From the NCBI RefSeq assembly GCF_056712565.1, contig NZ_CM160072.1: a DNA stretch of 64,000 nt. One strand, written 5' to 3'. This document shows, piece after piece, positions 40,348 to 50,442 of the stretch; position 1 is the stretch's first letter, and every line of letters begins with the position of its first letter. The notes below the pieces were generated by a model. It saw only the letters and a program-made list of their open reading frames with translations, was not told the DNA's origin and made no database searches. A program made the position numbers and the translations under genes.

Positions 40348-40561
40348 ACCTATATAAGCGATACTAATCAAATCCTCACCGCGCCTCCCTATCCGGTGGC
40401 GCGAATGAACATCTTATCGACTGTCAAATCTGACACAGATGTAGCCATCCCATTGCTTAATCGAAAAAAAATCATACTATGCAGGCGCTAATTCCAGGAT
40501 GATAACGCCTTTTGGGCTAGTCATGCTGCTCATAAATCTGGTATACTTACCGTTACACATT

Positions 40562-40924
40562 GGGGCTGATTCTGGATTCGACGGGATTTGCGAAACCCAA
40601 GGTGCATGCCGAGGGGCGGTTGGCCTCGTAAAAAGCCGCAAAAAATAGTCGCAAACGACGAAAACTACGCTTTAGCAGCTTAATAACCTGCTTAGAGCCC
40701 TCTCTCCCTAGCCTCCGCTCTTAGGACGGGGATCAAGAGAGGTCAAACCCAAAAGAGATCGCGTGGAAGCCCTGCCTGGGGTTGAAGCGTTAAAACTTAA
40801 TCAGGCTAGTTTGTTAGTGGCGTGTCCGTCCGCAGCTGGCAAGCGAATGTAAAGACTGACTAAGCATGTAGTACCGAGGATGTAGGAATTTCGGACGCGG
40901 GTTCAACTCCCGCCAGCTCCACCA
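40562..40924 (+). ncRNA. ssrA: tmRNA (transfer-messenger RNA)
   Basis: Starts GGGGCTGATTCTGGATTCGACGGG, contains tag ORF region (GCAAACGACGAAAACTACGCTTTAGCAGCTTAA), ends GGGTTCAACTCCCGCCAGCTCCACCA; 363 nt. Confidence 0.9.
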
Positions 40925-41052
40925 ATCATGATTGGACGGTGTAAGGACAACACCAACAAAAACAGGAAGTTAGAAGTCTCAGCAGGACACCGACCAGACG
41001 GTGAGGAGACATAAAAGGATACGCAAAGGAGCCGCGGCTCCGAAGTGAAATG

Positions 41053-41077
41053 AAAGCCCGCTGATGCGGGCTTTTTT
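41053..41077 (+). terminator. intrinsic terminator downstream of ssrA
   Basis: AGCCCGC-tgat-GCGGGCT followed by TTTTTT. Confidence 0.55.
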
Positions 41078-41356
41078 GCTTCTTCTCTTTAGCCTGATTC
41101 GACACTCTCAATGCGGCCATAAACAACAACCCACTTTTCTTATACCGTAGCCTGTCCCCCTCTTCCTGCTTTCTAACCATAACAGATGTGAGCGTTTGCT
41201 ATGAGCGATATATAGTCATTCGTACCCTCCGATACTAATCATCACAGAAATTAATATATTCATTCCTTACTGAAAAGCTATGAAGTAGATATATAGGATT
41301 GGGGCGCGTATGGCACTGGACAGTTATGCATCTCCGAATATTATTCCGGAGCTAAG

Positions 41357-41361
41357 ACAAC
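41357..41361. repeat. IS2 target-site duplication, left copy (ACAAC)
   Basis: 5 bp ACAAC immediately left of IS2 terminus; identical copy at 42693-42697. Confidence 0.7.
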
Positions 41362-41452
41362 TAGACTGGCCCCCTGAATCTCCAGACAACCAATATCACT
41401 TATTTAAGTGATAGTCTTAATACTAGTTTTTAGACTAGTCATTGGAGAGCAG

Positions 41453-41818
41453 ATGATTGATGTCTTAGGACCGGAGAAACGCAGACGGCGTACCACACAG
41501 GAAAAGATCGCAATTGTTCAGCAGAGCTTTGAACCAGGGATGACGGTCTCCCTCGTTGCCCGGCAACATGGTGTAGCAGCCAGCCAGTTATTTCTCTGGC
41601 GTAAGCAATACCAGGAAGGAAGTCTTACTGCTGTCGCCGCCGGAGAACAGGTTGTTCCTGCCTCTGAACTTGCTGCCGCCATGAAGCAGATTAAAGAACT
41701 CCAGCGCCTGCTCGGCAAGAAAACGATGGAAAATGAACTCCTCAAAGAAGCCGTTGAATATGGACGGGCAAAAAAGTGGATAGCGCACGCGCCCTTATTG
41801 CCCGGGGATGGGGAGTAA
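41453..41818 (+). CDS. insC: IS2 OrfA (InsC, HTH transposase part)
   Basis: [56 protein letters not shown]... Confidence 0.85.
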
Positions 41819-42681
41819 GCTTAGTCAGCCGTTGTCTCCGGGTGTCGCGTGCGCAGTTGCACGTCATTCTCAGACGAACCGATGACTGGATGGATGGCCG
41901 CCGCAGTCGTCACACTGATGATACGGATGTGCTTCTCCGTATACACCATGTTATCGGAGAGCTGCCCACGTATGGTTATCGTCGGGTATGGGCGCTGCTT
42001 CGCAGACAGGCAGAACTTGATGGTATGCCTGCGATCAATGCCAAACGTGTTTACCGGATCATGCGCCAGAATGCGCTGTTGCTTGAGCGAAAACCTGCTG
42101 TACCGCCATCGAAACGGGCACATACAGGCAGAGTGGCTGTGAAAGAAAGTAATCAGCGATGGTGCTCTGACGGGTTCGAGTTCCGCTGTGATAACGGAGA
42201 AAAACTGCGAGTCACGTTCGCGCTGGACTGCTGTGACCGTGAGGCACTGCACTGGGCGGTCACTACGGGCGGCTTCAACAGTGAAACAGTACAGGACGTC
42301 ATGCTGGGAGCGGTGGAACGCCGCTTCGGCAACGAGCTTCCGGCGTCTCCAGTAGAGTGGCTGACGGATAATGGTTCATGCTACCGGGCTAATGAAACAC
42401 GGCAGTTTGCCCGGATGTTGGGGCTTGAACCGAAGAGCACGGCGGTGCGGAGTCCGGAGAGTAACGGCATAGCAGAGAGCTTCGTGAAAACGATAAAGCG
42501 TGACTACATCAGTGTCATGCCCAAACCAGACGGGTTAACGGCAGCAAAGAACCTTGCAGAGGCGTTCGAGCATTATAACGAATGGCATCCGCATAGTGCA
42601 CTGGGTTATCGCTCGCCACGGGAATATCTACGGCAGCAAGCCAGTAATGGGTTAAGTGATAACAGGTGTCTGGAAATATAG
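41776..42681 (+). CDS. insD: IS2 OrfB (InsD, DDE transposase catalytic part)
   Basis: 301 aa overlapping orfA in -1 frame, typical IS3-family arrangement. Confidence 0.85.
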
Positions 42682-42692
42682 GGGCAAATCCA

Positions 42693-42697
42693 ACAAC
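42693..42697. repeat. IS2 target-site duplication, right copy (ACAAC)
   Basis: See left copy. Confidence 0.7.
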
Positions 42698-42839
42698 CGA
42701 ATGCCGCAGCAGGTAAGATCACGCTAGGGGGGCTGGACAGAATGGCTGTTACGCCCAGTGTGAAGAAAAGAAGGCTAAGTATGGTAGAATTTCCATACGC
42801 ACAGACCTTGTTATCCGACTATACAGCCTGGAAGGCACT

Positions 42840-43628
42840 ATGACAAATCTACAACTGGAAGAAAGATTTAGGGCGCTTGAGAAAGATTACGATGCGCTCA
42901 TTTCCACAAAATATACTGCGCAGAACGTTCTCACTCACACTATGGAAACCTATGTTGATTCTGGTAAATATAAAAACTGGATCGCCAGAGTGAAAAAGTT
43001 AATAGAGGACAGCTACGGAAAAGAGTCTGATTATTACAATGACTTCAATACTGTAAACAGCAGGTGGTCTTCTAATTACAATACACTGATCAAAAGTTAT
43101 AAACCGTTGTTTGATGCGGCGAGAGATGATCTTGCGCACTCTGCTGTCAGTACTAATACTCCTCAAGAAGGTTCGCCGCTGAGCCTCGTACTTAATATTC
43201 TTAACAGGTTTCCGACCTTTGTTCGCCAGTTAAAGAGGCGGTACAACGGCCGTGCGCCGCTTGAAGTTAATGATGAGTATGACGTACAGGATTTGATTTA
43301 TGCACTGCTGACGCTTCATTTTAATGATATTAGGGCGGAAGAGTATACCCCCAGCTTTGCGGGCGCGGCCTCAAGACAGGACTTTCTTTTGAAAAAAGAG
43401 AAAATTGTGATAGAGGTGAAGAAAACCCGTGAATCTCTGGGAGCGGGTAAAGTTGGTGGAGAGTTGCTTATTGATATGGCGCGCTACCGCGCTCACCAAG
43501 ACTGCGATACGTTGATCTTGTTTGTATATGACCCGGATTGCTACATAAATAATCCTTTGGGCGTGAAAACCGATCTGGAATCTAAAGACGCGGAAGGAAA
43601 AGTGAAGGTTGTTATTGCGCAGTTCTGA
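42840..43628 (+). CDS. hypothetical protein with putative PD-(D/E)xK nuclease core in C-terminal half
   Basis: 262 aa; candidate motifs E-YDVQDLIYALL, RQDFLL and IVIEVKK (D...ExK); helical N-terminal half; motif-level call only. Confidence 0.55.
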   Translation: MTNLQLEERFRALEKDYDALISTKYTAQNVLTHTMETYVDSGKYKNWIARVKKLIEDSYGKESDYYNDFNTVNSRWSSNYNTLIKSYKPLFDAARDDLAHSAVSTNTPQEGSPLSLVLNILNRFPTFVRQLKRRYNGRAPLEVNDEYDVQDLIYALLTLHFNDIRAEEYTPSFAGAASRQDFLLKKEKIVIEVKKTRESLGAGKVGGELLIDMARYRAHQDCDTLILFVYDPDCYINNPLGVKTDLESKDAEGKVKVVIAQF

Positions 43629-43715
43629 CACGCTTAAGTGTCACCTTACAGGATTAGGTTTGCGGCCGTGCCAGCAGGACGAGCATGAAAAAGGCCGCTG
43701 GCACGGCCGGATTTG

Positions 43716-44009
43716 TCATCTTTGCCAGGTCAAATCAAAATCTACGTGAAAATCCGCAGGCTTAAGCTCGCAACTGCCACCACGCCCAATTAACGACGTT
43801 ATGTTTACAACGTTTGAACCTGTTGAGATGGCAAGTTGAGTGTCATCTGTAAACGTGATGATTAGCATTTCAGTCTGATGAACCTGTACTCCAGTTTTCT
43901 GAAAACCAATCTGGACAGATTTCACCGTTTTCCCAACCATTTCACGGGCTTGATTGATAGAGTAATTAGCTTCAACTTGTAGGTCATTCCTGAACTTGGG
44001 TAGTGTCAT
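43716..44009 (-). CDS. hypothetical small protein (97 aa), downstream of GIY-YIG gene on same strand
   Basis: ORF convergent with 42840-43628; 12-bp inverted repeat GGCCGTGCCAGC/GCTGGCACGGCC at 43664-43708 between them. Confidence 0.45.
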   Translation of the reverse strand: MTLPKFRNDLQVEANYSINQAREMVGKTVKSVQIGFQKTGVQVHQTEMLIITFTDDTQLAISTGSNVVNITSLIGRGGSCELKPADFHVDFDLTWQR

Positions 44010-44219
44010 TTTACATCCTCTTTAGTGAAGTTTTCGCTATTTAAATCAGCAGCATTCCTTTTAAATCACTGGCATGTCAGCAGTGGATAGTCTGAGTGTA
44101 ACGTCCAGTGAGGGGAATAAATATTGGTCAGACTTTGCACAAAAGAGCCAACTATCGCGGGCTCTCTCTCATCATGTGCGAAAATTGACCACAATATGAA
44201 ATCCAGTTCCATTCCGAAA

Positions 44220-45044
<825 letters not shown>

Positions 45045-45140
45045 TCAATTGACAACTTATAATCCCTACTAGTTAGCATTATGATTTCCAGAGTGAGGAA
45101 TATAAAAATCTCTGTTTCTGGCACATAACAGCCCTTAAGA

Positions 45141-45200
45141 TCGTAGCTCGCCATCATGGGGTGTCGGGGGGCGGAGGTTCAAATCCTCTCGTGCCGACCA
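45141..45200 (+). other. tRNA-Pro 3' fragment (about 60 nt, anticodon-stem to CCA end), att-like remnant, not a complete tRNA
   Basis: catggggtgtcggggggcggaggttcaaatcctctcgtgccgacca matches recalled proL 3' 46 nt with one mismatch; 5' acceptor/D-arm region diverged. Confidence 0.6.
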
Positions 45201-45213
45201 AAAATCCCTTAAG

Positions 45214-45241
45214 AACCAGCCTATTATGGCTGGTTTTTTTA
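45214..45241 (+). terminator. intrinsic terminator following the tRNA-Pro fragment
   Basis: AACCAGCC-tattat-GGCTGGTT followed by TTTTTTT. Confidence 0.6.
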
Positions 45242-45441
45242 TGATTGTTTTTTATGCGGAGAAATACCGGGGAATAATTGGGGTAAAACACCTTTAGGCT
45301 ATTCACTTAGCCTACCACCATCAAAATCTTTCCGAATGTATCCATCTCTTTTTTCTTATGCAGCTAAAACGAAGTCTTGATACTGTTTATTTACACAGAT
45401 AAGAATAATACTGTCTACAAACGCAGTACAAAAGAAGTGTT

Positions 45442-45620
45442 ATGCGTATTGAGATCTCCATAGCCAAAGACAAAATGACCAAATGCCAAACGGCGCTGTG
45501 GACGCGTTAAAGGAAGAATTAACCCAACACATTGGCAAGCGTTATGACGATGTGGAGATGATCGTAAAAGCCACCAGCAACGATAGTTTTTCAGTTAGAC
45601 ATACTGCAGATAAAGATTGA
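45442..45620 (+). pseudogene. DinI-like small gene with apparent frameshift (two overlapping short frames)
   Basis: [14 protein letters not shown] (frame 1, stop 45508-45510) continues in another frame as [37 protein letters not shown]; resembles DinI N-terminus from memory. Confidence 0.35.
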
Positions 45621-46044
45621 GCTAAAACTTTCGTTCAGGAAACTCTGAATGATACCTGAGAGTCTACTGAAGAGTTGTTTGTTCACTAGTTAGCACGTAG
45701 GAAATCATTCAATACTCGCACTATCGGAAGTTCACCAGCCAGTCGTAGCACGTCCTTGCAAACGACGTGCCTACGGTTTCAATCACCTCTCACCATCAAT
45801 TCTATCAATAATAATTAAACAGCGCCTAGACAAAATAAATAACAACAAGTCAACAACCTCGACAGGATGCCGATGGGATGATGAAGAGATAAGAAAGAAT
45901 AACCAGTAAAGCCCTAAAACGTCAGCGTTCAGACGCGTTTTTTACTTAATCGGTAACAAATACGTTGTATCATAGCAAAATAAAATGATTGTTCTAAATC
46001 AGATTAACTCCTCACTTTTGTACAATGTCGCTTACAGGTATACC

Positions 46045-47934
46045 ATGAAATCCGAGACGCTAACTGTCCAACAACTTTTTCAAGACCGCCGACAATACTG
46101 TGTTCCATTCTATCAACGTGCCTATGTATGGACTCAGCAAGACCAGTGGTCAGCTCTACTGGAGGATATCCTAGAGAAAGTACAATCCCGGCTCTCGGGT
46201 ACAAAACCAACTCCCCATTTCCTTGGTGCGGTTGTACTGGAACCTCAATCAAAAAAAGGATTATTAGGTGTAGATTCCATACATATTATTGATGGTCAGC
46301 AACGATTGACCACTCTTCAATATGTTCTGGCATCCATCCGATTAGCATTACGTGCTACGGATCTTTCCAGCTTAGAGGCTCTCATTTCGCCTTGCCTGAA
46401 AAACTCAAACGAAGACACAATGCGAAATAAAGAAGTAGAACGCTTCAAACTGTGGCCAACTTTTCGGGATCAAACTCATTTTATTCAAAGTTTTAATGTT
46501 GAAAATATTGACGATCTCCGGGACGTATTCTCTGATAGTTTCACGCAGCATGGTACGTTGCGTAAGCATTTTAATCACCCGCCATCACTAGAAGCATTAT
46601 GTTTTTTTACTGAAGCCTTTATAAAATGGATTAAAATAGAAAACCACTCACCACAAGAAAATGCTGTAGCTCTAATTGAGGCTGTCTTAACAGATCTGAA
46701 ACTGGTAAGCATATTTCTCGAAGCTGAAGATGATGCCCAAATAATTTTTGAAACATTAAATGGGCGAGGGGCGGAACTTCATGCTACGGATCTTATTCGC
46801 AACTATATCTTTATGTGCGCTGAGCATGAAAATATTAATGCTATTGAATTATATGAAAATGAGTGGAAGAGCTTTGAAGATAAATACTGGTCGGAAAAAC
46901 AACGCCGTGGACGTATTAATAAACCACGCATGGAGTGGCTAGTACATGCGACATTGCAATCAGAAAGGCAACGTGAAATTGATCTGTCTCGCCTTTACAA
47001 TGAGTATCGTGATTATGTAAGTAAGGACTTGTCTTCACAACGAGCAGATCTGCAAGTAAAGCGCCTCAAACAATATGCATCACAATATAAAGAATTGGTT
47101 GATGGTTTTGGCACAACCCCCATCTCACACTTTGGATATCGCATCGCAGACTATGATGTGACGACACTTTATCCGCTTGCTTTGTTCATTTCGATAGCTA
47201 ACATCGCTGATGATGAGAAAGCAGCCATGTATAATGATCTTGTCTCCTACGTAGTACGAAGAGCCGTATGTGGCCTGACGCCAAAGAATTACAACAATGT
47301 ATTTATGAATGTATTGCGGCACTTGGCTAAAACGGAAATTTCCAGTGTTGAGTTACGTAATATCCTCAATAACTTAAATGGCGAAGCCTCACGTTGGCCT
47401 GGTGACTCAGAATTTCTCAACGCTTGCATCAATGCTCCACTTTATCCTGGCAGGCTCGACGCACCGAAAATGCGCTCAATGTTAACGGAACTTGAAAGAG
47501 AACTTTGTCGCCAAGTAAAGACAGAAAAGCCTGATGTTCCAAATCTTTCTAATCTCGATATCGATCATCTTATGCCTCAAAGTTGGTATTCCTGTTGGCC
47601 TCTCGAAAATGGTCGTATGGTGACAAATTCAGATGCTACGGTATTGAACCAAATTGTTCTGTCTGGAACCGATCTTACCCCTGAACAGCTACTGGTAAGG
47701 AAACGGCAACAAGCGATATCTACTTTGGGAAATCTAACTTTGCTTAACCTTAGCGTAAACCGTTCTGTTCAGAATGCTGTATTTCTGAAAAAACGTGATG
47801 CTCTCATCGTCCACACCAATCTACGACTGAACATTCCACTTATAGTTAAGGATAAATGGGATGAGGATGAAATCCTGGAGCGGGGTAAAAAGTTGGGGGA
47901 AATTGCATTGAAAGTATGGCCAAAACACGATTAA
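46045..47934 (+). CDS. GmrSD-family type IV (modification-dependent) restriction endonuclease-like protein (DUF262 + DUF1524/HNH)
   Basis: N-terminal YCVPFYQRAYVW and DGQQR (DUF262/ParB-like); C-terminal DIDHLMPQSW (His-Me/HNH-like); start taken at ATG 46045. Confidence 0.7.
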   Translation: MKSETLTVQQLFQDRRQYCVPFYQRAYVWTQQDQWSALLEDILEKVQSRLSGTKPTPHFLGAVVLEPQSKKGLLGVDSIHIIDGQQRLTTLQYVLASIRLALRATDLSSLEALISPCLKNSNEDTMRNKEVERFKLWPTFRDQTHFIQSFNVENIDDLRDVFSDSFTQHGTLRKHFNHPPSLEALCFFTEAFIKWIKIENHSPQENAVALIEAVLTDLKLVSIFLEAEDDAQIIFETLNGRGAELHATDLIRNYIFMCAEHENINAIELYENEWKSFEDKYWSEKQRRGRINKPRMEWLVHATLQSERQREIDLSRLYNEYRDYVSKDLSSQRADLQVKRLKQYASQYKELVDGFGTTPISHFGYRIADYDVTTLYPLALFISIANIADDEKAAMYNDLVSYVVRRAVCGLTPKNYNNVFMNVLRHLAKTEISSVELRNILNNLNGEASRWPGDSEFLNACINAPLYPGRLDAPKMRSMLTELERELCRQVKTEKPDVPNLSNLDIDHLMPQSWYSCWPLENGRMVTNSDATVLNQIVLSGTDLTPEQLLVRKRQQAISTLGNLTLLNLSVNRSVQNAVFLKKRDALIVHTNLRLNIPLIVKDKWDEDEILERGKKLGEIALKVWPKHD

Positions 47935-48184: not shown

Positions 48185-48679
48185 ATGATGCCATTTGCTC
48201 GTTATTTCTGCATTTTCATAAACGTTGGTTTGGGAGAAGGCTCTGCATTACCTGTTGGTGTGCCTGTTCCATGGCCTTCAGCCACACCGCCAACAGGCTG
48301 GCTGAAATGCAACGGTGCGGCTTTTTCTGCTGAAGAATACCCGGAACTGGCAAAGGCTTATCCGACAAATAAATTGCCTGATTTACGTGGTGAGTTTATT
48401 CGTGGCTGGGATGATGGGCGCGGCGTTGATTCAAGGCGTGCGGTGCTGTCAACACAAGAGCCAACTGTAGGTACTTTTTATGTGGAGCTAGCTATCATCT
48501 CGGGAACTTTGAGCGGCTCAGGTGCTAAATTTACCGATTCAGTAGGGATTGGATCAACCAGTAGTAACATTACCGTTAGCAACGGTAATGACCAGTCCGT
48601 GTCGGGTACAGTGGCCGTTAACCCCGTCGATACCCGTCCACGCAACATTGCATTTAACTATATCGTGAGAGCAGCATAA
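48185..48679 (+). CDS. silent alternative tail-fibre C-terminal (variable) segment inside invertible region
   Basis: PSATPPTGWLKCNGAAF...TRPRNIAFNYIVRAA shared with P2-family H C-terminus (21280-21730); no own N-terminal domain. Confidence 0.6.
   Translation: MMPFARYFCIFINVGLGEGSALPVGVPVPWPSATPPTGWLKCNGAAFSAEEYPELAKAYPTNKLPDLRGEFIRGWDDGRGVDSRRAVLSTQEPTVGTFYVELAIISGTLSGSGAKFTDSVGIGSTSSNITVSNGNDQSVSGTVAVNPVDTRPRNIAFNYIVRAA
48213..48238. repeat. gix-like inversion crossover site (left boundary of invertible tail-fibre segment)
   Basis: TTTTCATAAACG-TT-GGTTTGGGAGAA; 15-bp core TTGGTTTGGGAGAAG is exact inverted repeat of 50139-50153; half-site resembles Gin/Pin site TTATCCAAAACC. Confidence 0.55.
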
Positions 48680-49281
48680 TGGATAAAGCAATATTAAATA
48701 GTGGACTTGTTGCTACAAAGGCAGGGGATATTACCGTTTATAACTATGATGGTGAAACTCGGGAATATATTTCCACTTCAAGTGAATATCTTGCCGTTGG
48801 TGTTGGTATCCCGGCATATTCCTGTCTGGATGCACCAGGTATACATAAGGCGGGTTATGCTATCTGTCGTTCTGTGAATTTAAATTCATGGGAATATGTG
48901 CCAGACCATCGCGGTGAAATCGTCTATAACACCGAAACGGGAGAATCAAAACAAATCACAGCACCGGGTGATTACCCCGAAAATACAACCACTATTGCCC
49001 CATTAACGCCATACGATAAATGGGATGGTGAGAAATGGGTGACCGATACTGAGGCACAGCATAGCGCCGCAGTAGACGCGGCAGAAGCACAGCGTCAGTC
49101 ACTGATTGATGCTGCAATGGCTTCCATCGGTCTGATTCAGCTGAAATTACAGGCCGGACGGAAGCTGATGCAGGCAGAAACAACCCGGCTTAACGCTGTG
49201 CTGGATTACATTGACGCGGTGACGGCAACAAATACCAGCACAGCGCCGGATGTCATCTGGCCTGAACTGCCGGAGGCGTAG
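48679..49281 (+). CDS. tail fibre assembly protein (alternative copy, inside invertible segment)
   Basis: N-terminus ATKAGDITVYNYDGETRE near-identical to gpG-like protein at 21732. Confidence 0.65.
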   Translation: MDKAILNSGLVATKAGDITVYNYDGETREYISTSSEYLAVGVGIPAYSCLDAPGIHKAGYAICRSVNLNSWEYVPDHRGEIVYNTETGESKQITAPGDYPENTTTIAPLTPYDKWDGEKWVTDTEAQHSAAVDAAEAQRQSLIDAAMASIGLIQLKLQAGRKLMQAETTRLNAVLDYIDAVTATNTSTAPDVIWPELPEA

Positions 49282-49696
49282 GCCATTCAATATCTGGCGC
49301 ACAGGAAGTATCGACCAGTTCCAGTGCGTCCAGATAATCCAGCCACGAATTATATTGCGCCAGTTCCTCGCCTTTCAGACGACCAATAGCAGCTTTGCCA
49401 GGCCACTGATGGGTATTGATGTAGGTATTGACTTCTGAAACCAAAGATATTTTTTTCATTTCAGCCGTCAACACCTCATCCTCTTTTGAAGGGGGTGGGG
49501 AATTAATCCATACTGGCCGTCCTGAACTGTCAGCGCCAATTTCTTTCCCTTCTGGATGCAGACCAAGAAATTGCTCATATGTTTCTCTGGTAATTTCAAT
49601 AACATCATCAGGAAGCGTTCCCGCATCCTCATATTCTGGAAACAATTCTTGCAGATAAAAACTTTTACTTCCGGGTGAAAAGAATACTGAGTTCAT
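49253..49696 (-). CDS. tail fibre assembly protein (expressed orientation)
   Basis: 147 aa with C-terminal ...LDALELVDTSCAPDIEWPTPP typical Tfa ending. Confidence 0.65.
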   Translation of the reverse strand: MNSVFFSPGSKSFYLQELFPEYEDAGTLPDDVIEITRETYEQFLGLHPEGKEIGADSSGRPVWINSPPPSKEDEVLTAEMKKISLVSEVNTYINTHQWPGKAAIGRLKGEELAQYNSWLDYLDALELVDTSCAPDIEWPTPPAVQAR

Positions 49697-49698
49697 TA

Positions 49699-50442
49699 TT
49701 ACCGTCCAATGATTAACGCTGAGACGCTGGTATCTGAAGGAAAGGCTGCATTCAGTGGTTTGTCGACTTTGAACACAATCGTATTATTCCCCCTGACAGC
49801 GGCAAAAGAACAAACCGCCGTCGCGTATGAACCTGTAATATTACTGGATACACCACCATAAGCTGTTGTTGATACCAGAGGGATAACGCCCAGCACCTTA
49901 TTAGGAAATACAAAGGGCAATGTGGCTGTGGCAATATAAGACTTATTAGAACCTGTGATGGCATAAGCATTATCAGTCATTCCATTCATCGCCACTGGGC
50001 CGCTTATACTTACAGTAACCATCTGAATGATTAGCCCGTCAGGTTGACGAATCACAAAATTTCCATTGCCACCAGTAACCGTCCAGAAAGACATATCAGG
50101 GATTTGGTTTTCCCCGTTGCCCACATTCCGTTTTGCCGCTTCTCCCAAACCAAGGTTTTCGAGAGCCGTTTTCACCGTGCCGTCCGATTTGATATCGCTA
50201 AACGGATTCTTGCGGCTTAACAGCAGCGCACGAAGCGCGGTAAGCAGCTGGTCGTGCCGCGCCTTCTCCAGACTGGCACCGGATGCCTCCACCACGCTGC
50301 AGAGTTCTTCCTGCAACATGTCAAAGTAGTCATCATCCAGATCGGTGGCAGGCGTGCCTGTCTGGGGGTTACCACGGGTAAAACCGTTCTTACCCGCGCC
50401 GAACTTATCCTTCTGCGCGGTTTTCGTGTCTATACGATGCAT
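49699..50442 (-). CDS. tail fibre protein (constant N-terminal part + current variable C-terminal part)
   Basis: 247 aa; gix-like site lies inside the gene at codons around [10 protein letters not shown]. Confidence 0.65.
50140..50165. repeat. gix-like inversion crossover site (right boundary, inside tail-fibre gene)
   Basis: TTCTCCCAAACC-AA-GGTTTTCGAGAG. Confidence 0.55.

Follow-up and report, generated by a model that had tools for sequence, protein, structure and literature searches.

The IS3-family insertion sequences IS911, IS3 and IS150 follow, like IS2, a common plan: two open reading frames joined by -1 frameshifting, a DDE transposase, and copy-out-paste-in transposition via a minicircle with a junction promoter. 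IS2 differs from these elements in sequence and is set apart by the TA-5' terminus of its left inverted repeat (IRL), which is donor-inactive, and by a 5-bp target duplication. The IRL and the right inverted repeat (IRR) of IS2 are 42 and 41 bp long, respectively, and its A6G window has been described (PMC3299598). A footprint that includes the OrfA repressor site covers IS2 residues 39-48, just before the TGAT of the promoter PIRL; this TGAT belongs to an extended -10 at base pairs 48-51, and PIRL is weak (PMC3299598). The catalytic triad of IS2 OrfAB is formed by D240, D306 and E342 (PMC3219604). Fusion promoters of IS2 can arise when a -10 hexamer is rightly spaced from the outward -35 hexamer in IRR (review, PMC9330008). 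At ampC, as that review recounts it, the -35 hexamer came from IS2 and stood 17 bp away from a -10 that was already present (Jaurin and Normark 1983, cited in PMC9330008). A spacer of exactly 17 bp is required by Pjunc of IS2 (PMC3299598).

We identified a copy of IS2 between ssrA and a nuclease-like gene in the 64-kb stretch of DNA that was analysed (the window; all coordinates are positions within it). This is very probably an autonomous, intact IS2 of the IS3 family that entered non-coding island DNA by ordinary transposition, with a likely nil or slight effect on its neighbour. The element is already known. It is an isoform of the thoroughly characterised IS2 in a standard insertion, not a new kind of element. 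The features of the locus are as follows.

41357..41361, no strand: left copy of the target-site duplication, ACAAC, read from the sequence; empty alleles have a single ACAAC
41362..42692, + strand: complete IS2, isoform, 1331 bp; 97.75% identity to K-12 IS2A in a gap-free alignment
41362..41403, + strand: IRL, the 42-bp left inverted repeat with a 5'-TA start, donor-inactive end; positions 1-41 as in K-12 IS2A, position 42 A>T
41400..41409, + strand: operator protected by OrfA/transposase, IS residues 39-48; footprint from PMC3299598
41409..41417, + strand: IS2 promoter PIRL, weak, of the extended -10 type, TGATAGTCT; identical to K-12
41453..41818, + strand: orfA (InsC/TnpA repressor), 121 aa; translation identical to K-12 InsC1
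41770..41776, + strand: A6G slippery heptamer AAAAAAG, IS positions 409-415; phase X XXY YYZ (A AAA AAG) relative to orfA
41776..42681, + strand: orfB (InsD), 301 aa, with the DDE catalytic core; 8 amino acid substitutions relative to K-12 InsD1
42652..42692, + strand: IRR, the 41-bp right inverted repeat with a CA-3' end, donor end; last 26 bp as in K-12, one substitution at IS 1305
42693..42697, no strand: right copy of the target-site duplication, ACAAC, from the sequence and empty alleles
42782..42790, + strand: conserved extended -10, TGGTAGAAT, probable promoter of the gene at 42840; TG-n-TA.A.T in five loci, promoter function putative
42840..43628, + strand: nuclease-like gene, 262 aa, REase_DpnII-MboI (PD-(D/E)xK), outside IS2; Pfam PF18742, E = 9.5e-49

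The interval 41357-42697 reads, in order, ACAAC, TAGACTGGCCCCC ... GGGGCAAATCCA, ACAAC. Alignment to IS2A of K-12 MG1655 (NC_000913.3, 381260-382590) extends over 1331 bp with 0 gaps. The earlier note, written from the letters alone, had named an intact IS2 with ACAAC on both flanks and had asked whether termini and flanks would agree with an IS2 reference. The alignment begins and ends at the annotated boundaries of IS2A, and the flanks match empty alleles that hold one ACAAC; thus both the element and its duplication are borne out. A flanking 5-bp match has a chance probability of ~1/1024. The following defining features of IS2 were found: at least 95% identity over ~1331 bp, the termini, overlapping open reading frames with A6G, a helix-turn-helix (HTH) and a DDE core, and a 5-bp duplication.

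Like K-12 IS2A, the element is 1331 bp without indels, encodes an identical OrfA, places A6G at the same position, retains D240/D306/E342 and is flanked by a 5-bp duplication. It differs by 30 substitutions (2.25%), among them AA>TT at IS 42-43 and G for A at IS 1305, and by 8 amino acids in OrfB. The copy thus represents an IS2 isoform, not the K-12 sequence; two of the 30 changes lie within the OrfA operator and one within IRR. The substitutions are unevenly spread, with 0 in IS 176-605 and 25 in IS 606-1305, a distribution that suggests a mosaic of IS2 isoforms. No second copy of IS2 was found in the 64-kb window, where each 20-nt IS2 terminus occurs once. A composite transposon bounded by IS2 was thus rejected, as no second copy brackets cargo within the window.

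Both terminal repeats are present, as had been claimed, and the first 41 of the 42 bases of IRL and the last 26 of the 41 bases of IRR are those of K-12. The left end begins TAGACTGGCCCC... and shares its first 41 bp with the reference. At the right end, ...GGGGCAAATCCA, 26 bp are identical to the reference and G replaces A at IS 1305 (IRR position 27). The terminal ends therefore carry three changes relative to K-12, at IS 42, IS 43 and IS 1305. The operator reads TTATTTAAGT here versus TTAAATAAGT in the reference, owing to AA>TT at IS 42-43. These two bases are the flipped 2-nt loop of a perfect hairpin, CACTTA-NN-TAAGTG (41397-41410, IS2 positions 36-49), and the 14-mers of the isoform and of K-12 at IS2 36-49 are reverse complements of each other, as would result from a template-switch or hairpin-inversion event. 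The 87-nt left end with TT gave the best match in 842 records, against 5,982 that matched at 95-99% identity.

The two transposase reading frames reported earlier are likewise both open (121 aa for orfA, 301 codons for orfB). A -1 shift at A6G, which is in phase, yields OrfAB of 409 aa without a stop. In this protein D240, D306 and E342 are intact, none of the 8 OrfB substitutions falls at a DDE residue, and the mutation-sensitive residues reported in PMC3219604 are all unchanged. Pfam matches comprise HTH_Tnp_1 in orfA, rve and rve_3 in orfB, and HTH_21. The NCBIfam models 'IS2 repressor TnpA' (239 bits, cut-off 229), 'IS2 transposase TnpB' (709 bits, cut-off 597) and 'IS3 family transposase' (transpos_IS3; 282 bits, cut-off 160) were also matched. 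An identical IS2 copy in strain SCU-116 bears the RefSeq label 'programmed frameshift'.

The allele without IS2 was sought with an empty-site query of 940 nt, made from the locus minus the element and one ACAAC, which was compared by BLAST with complete E. coli genomes. Among the matches listed, 40 of 40 were identical to the query (100%) in one BLAST piece; at least 80% of the query was covered in 109 complete genomes. Genomes with the empty locus include UTI89, S88, APEC O1, IHE3034, NU14 and the type strain ATCC 11775. UTI89 shows 0 mismatches to the flanks, over 6,437 bp on the left side and 5,542 bp on the right. This comparison with IS2-free alleles, which had been proposed beforehand, upholds the claim of a simple transposition, as the empty alleles contain a single ACAAC and match at 100% over 940 nt.

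We infer that the insertion followed the established IS2 pathway. OrfAB would be made by -1 frameshifting at A6G, would cleave at the CA-3' end of IRR and would join this end beside IRL. The product would be a figure-of-eight, which would become a minicircle with a 1-bp spacer at its junction. Attack of the abutted IS2 ends on the target, staggered by 5 bp, would be followed by repair, which would leave ACAAC duplicated. Identical copies of the 1331-bp element (100%) occur at many unrelated chromosomal and plasmid sites in E. coli genomes and lend this route indirect support. MS8345 and SF-468 combine an empty locus with a 100%-identical IS2 elsewhere in the genome. An insertion like the one in the window could arise from such a donor.

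The insertion is strain-specific. The right IS2 junction was found in 0 of 5,426 complete E. coli genomes. In the same collection the left junction was complete in 3 records only, as two pieces over 385 bp, and a 30-nt left-junction pattern had no match in metagenome contigs. An insertion common to these three genomes was ruled out by direct sequence comparison, which revealed a different IS2 insertion 105 bp away. SCU-116 has an identical 1331-bp IS2 in the same orientation and the same intergenic region, 105 bp further to the right (L004, 3543-4873). Its duplication is CGCAC, equivalent to 42798-42802 of the window, rather than ACAAC; without this IS2 and one CGCAC, the sequence is again that of the common empty site. 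The match pattern of MS20673 and Eco_23-2678 is the same as that of SCU-116, and in Eco_23-2678 the transposase gene, as annotated, is likewise displaced by 105 bp. The IS2 of these three genomes thus shares sequence, orientation and region with the one described here, and differs in position and duplication. Absence from 5,426 complete genomes indicates that the insertion in the window is not only strain-specific but probably recent. The earlier suggestion of recency is strengthened by its absence from metagenome contigs as well, and by the 100% identity of the copy to copies at other loci. A private IS2 insertion in an ssrA-adjacent island is a possible lineage marker for the strain. IS2 itself teaches nothing new, and the finding matters little beyond bookkeeping.

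Upstream of the insertion are SmpB and the tmRNA gene, with ssrA at 40562-40924. Homology to K-12 stops at 41076, where the native terminator of ssrA ends. The segment after ssrA (40910-41076, terminator at 41052-41075) is 93% identical to K-12 DNA right of the CP4-57 prophage. This match indicates that the 3' end of ssrA is free of a CP4-57-type element here, and that the island appears to begin after the terminator. No integrase gene was found next to ssrA. Strain-specific island DNA extends from ~41077, and IS2 lies ~285 bp inside it. In UTI89 the 579 bp that separate ssrA from the following gene carry 0 annotated features, and an Rfam scan of 40400-43700 returned tmRNA as its sole match, with none at the insertion site. 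The insertion therefore interrupts no annotated gene; it lies within 579 bp of non-coding DNA that belong to a defence-gene/prophage island.

The gene to the right, at 42840-43628, is identical in DNA sequence to the UTI89 allele. Its description as PD-(D/E)xK-like agrees with the Pfam match to REase_DpnII-MboI (E = 9.5e-49). The distance of 143 bp given for it is right for a count that starts at 42697, where the right ACAAC ends, and stops at the first base of the start codon (42840); 147 nt separate the end of IS2 from this ATG. Relatives of the gene from viral contigs have protein identities of 92, 87, 55 and 54%, and their upstream DNA has largely diverged. A TG-n-TA.A.T extended -10 is kept ~50 bp before the ATG in all five loci; the one in the window (42782-42790) is found 90 bp to the right of the IS2 end. 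A block resembling GGCTGGACAGAAT (42731-42743), ~40 bp upstream of the extended -10, is also kept in the relatives L009-L012 despite their diverged upstream DNA, and may be a regulator binding site. Both sequences are located to the right of IS2 and so were left intact by the insertion. A 32-codon upstream open reading frame (42742-42840), which overlaps the ATG of the gene by ATGA, was set aside as due to chance, as L009 has an interrupted frame and L010-L012 lack it altogether.

We infer from these positions that the effect of the insertion on the nuclease-like gene is most likely nil or slight, given a conserved -10 that lies 90 bp downstream of IS2 and the lack of a fusion promoter. The insertion might instead lower expression, if an upstream promoter or regulatory site had been separated from the gene and transcription died inside IS2 (polarity). 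A sigma-70-like site, TGGACA-16-TATTAT (41317-41344, 10/12 match), does end 18 bp before the left end of IS2, and clearly inactivating IS insertions at the gene in other strains point to a loss of function that is tolerated or even favoured. Yet this site is not kept in L009, the closest relative (92%), and is thus unlikely to be a native promoter cut off by IS2, whereas the -10 at 42782-42790 is kept down to 54% protein identity. The promoter scan moreover returned 5 promoter-like sites where shuffles gave 2.0 +/- 1.5; a single site therefore has little weight, and we regard lowered expression as unlikely. Raised expression, through a fusion promoter that uses the outward -35 of IRR or by read-through from the IS2 promoter, is more doubtful again. 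It would have precedents, as IS2 fusion promoters are documented at ampC, neoR and acrEF (review, PMC9330008). IRR faces the gene, as the right end does in the ampC case, and no + strand terminator-like site was found between orfB and the gene. The outward -35 hexamer in IRR would be TGGAAA at 42671-42676, placed by the 17-bp spacer rule for Pjunc. The hexamers read by eye in the flank 16-18 bp past TGGAAA (ACAACC, CAACCG and AACCGA) match TATAAT at no more than 1/6, and the promoter scan gave no + strand site at the IRR/flank junction. A fusion promoter at this junction was rejected on these grounds. Unlike at ampC, no -10-like hexamer occurs at the required spacing, which for Pjunc is reported to be exactly 17 bp. 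PIRL is described as a weak promoter, and the junction is 147 bp from the ATG with the gene's own conserved promoter in between. Of the earlier statement that the right end points into the downstream gene, the orientation is correct, but the sequence offers no basis for a fusion promoter.

That the copy is an immobile relic, intact in looks only, is extremely improbable. The changes at IS 42 and 43 (OrfA operator, at the inner border of IRL) and at IS 1305 (IRR position 27), together with the 8 amino acid changes in OrfB, could be taken to favour a relic. Against this, the same 1331-bp sequence is present at many unrelated chromosomal and plasmid sites, and a second, independent insertion of it, with its own 5-bp duplication, occurred 105 bp off in another lineage. 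From these copies the variant evidently transposes, and the substitutions at IS 42, 43 and 1305 evidently do not cripple it. The copy in the window is complete and apparently functional.

The nearby insertion in SCU-116 is of a different kind with regard to the gene. It is located 42 bp before the ATG and 8 bp after the conserved -10 hexamer, about at the transcription start, and thus probably separates the promoter from the nuclease-like gene. A second IS3-family element lies inside the nuclease-like coding sequence in SCU-116 and Eco_23-2678, the genomes whose annotation was read, and in AH21I008 the coding sequence contains ISEc52 (L024). The gene is carried by 112 of the 5,426 complete E. 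coli genomes and is split or partial in 6 of the 112, of which 4 were examined. In total, four IS insertions were characterised at the gene or upstream of it: the IS2 described here, the IS2 and the IS3-family element of the SCU-116 lineage, and ISEc52 of AH21I008. These recurrent hits may reflect nothing more than insertion tolerance in accessory DNA. It is conceivable, though improbable, that they go beyond mere tolerance and point to selection that favours the silencing of a costly, prophage-borne defence nuclease, or to a hot spot for IS2 in this region. If the hits prove to be selected, they would be informative on the cost of carrying the nuclease-like gene. The IS2 in the window adds one case to this small series around a prophage-borne gene.

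Genes located 3' of the nuclease-like gene encode, in order, a 97-aa protein without a match, PD-T4-3, a type IV restriction enzyme and phage tail proteins. PD-T4-3, a GIY-YIG defence protein, was identified by PADLOC (E = 8.6e-137), as was the type IV methyl-directed restriction enzyme (DUF262; 1415 bits). A defence-type cluster (42840-47934) thus forms the ssrA-proximal end of the prophage/island and comprises the REase_DpnII-MboI protein, PD-T4-3, a DinI-like pseudogene and the type IV enzyme. The REase_DpnII-MboI-domain protein appears to stand alone, as no methyltransferase was seen beside its gene.

Further to the right, a 1.9-kb segment with tail-fibre and tail-fibre-assembly genes (48220-50158) is inverted relative to UTI89, with 99.9% identity. 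At each end (48220-48239 and 50139-50158) the aligned blocks share 20 bp, and the segment resembles the Mu G / e14 P-type invertible segment. The recombinase gene beside it is annotated as a 123-bp remnant only, in UTI89 and in Eco_23-2678, so the segment could invert only with an invertase provided in trans.
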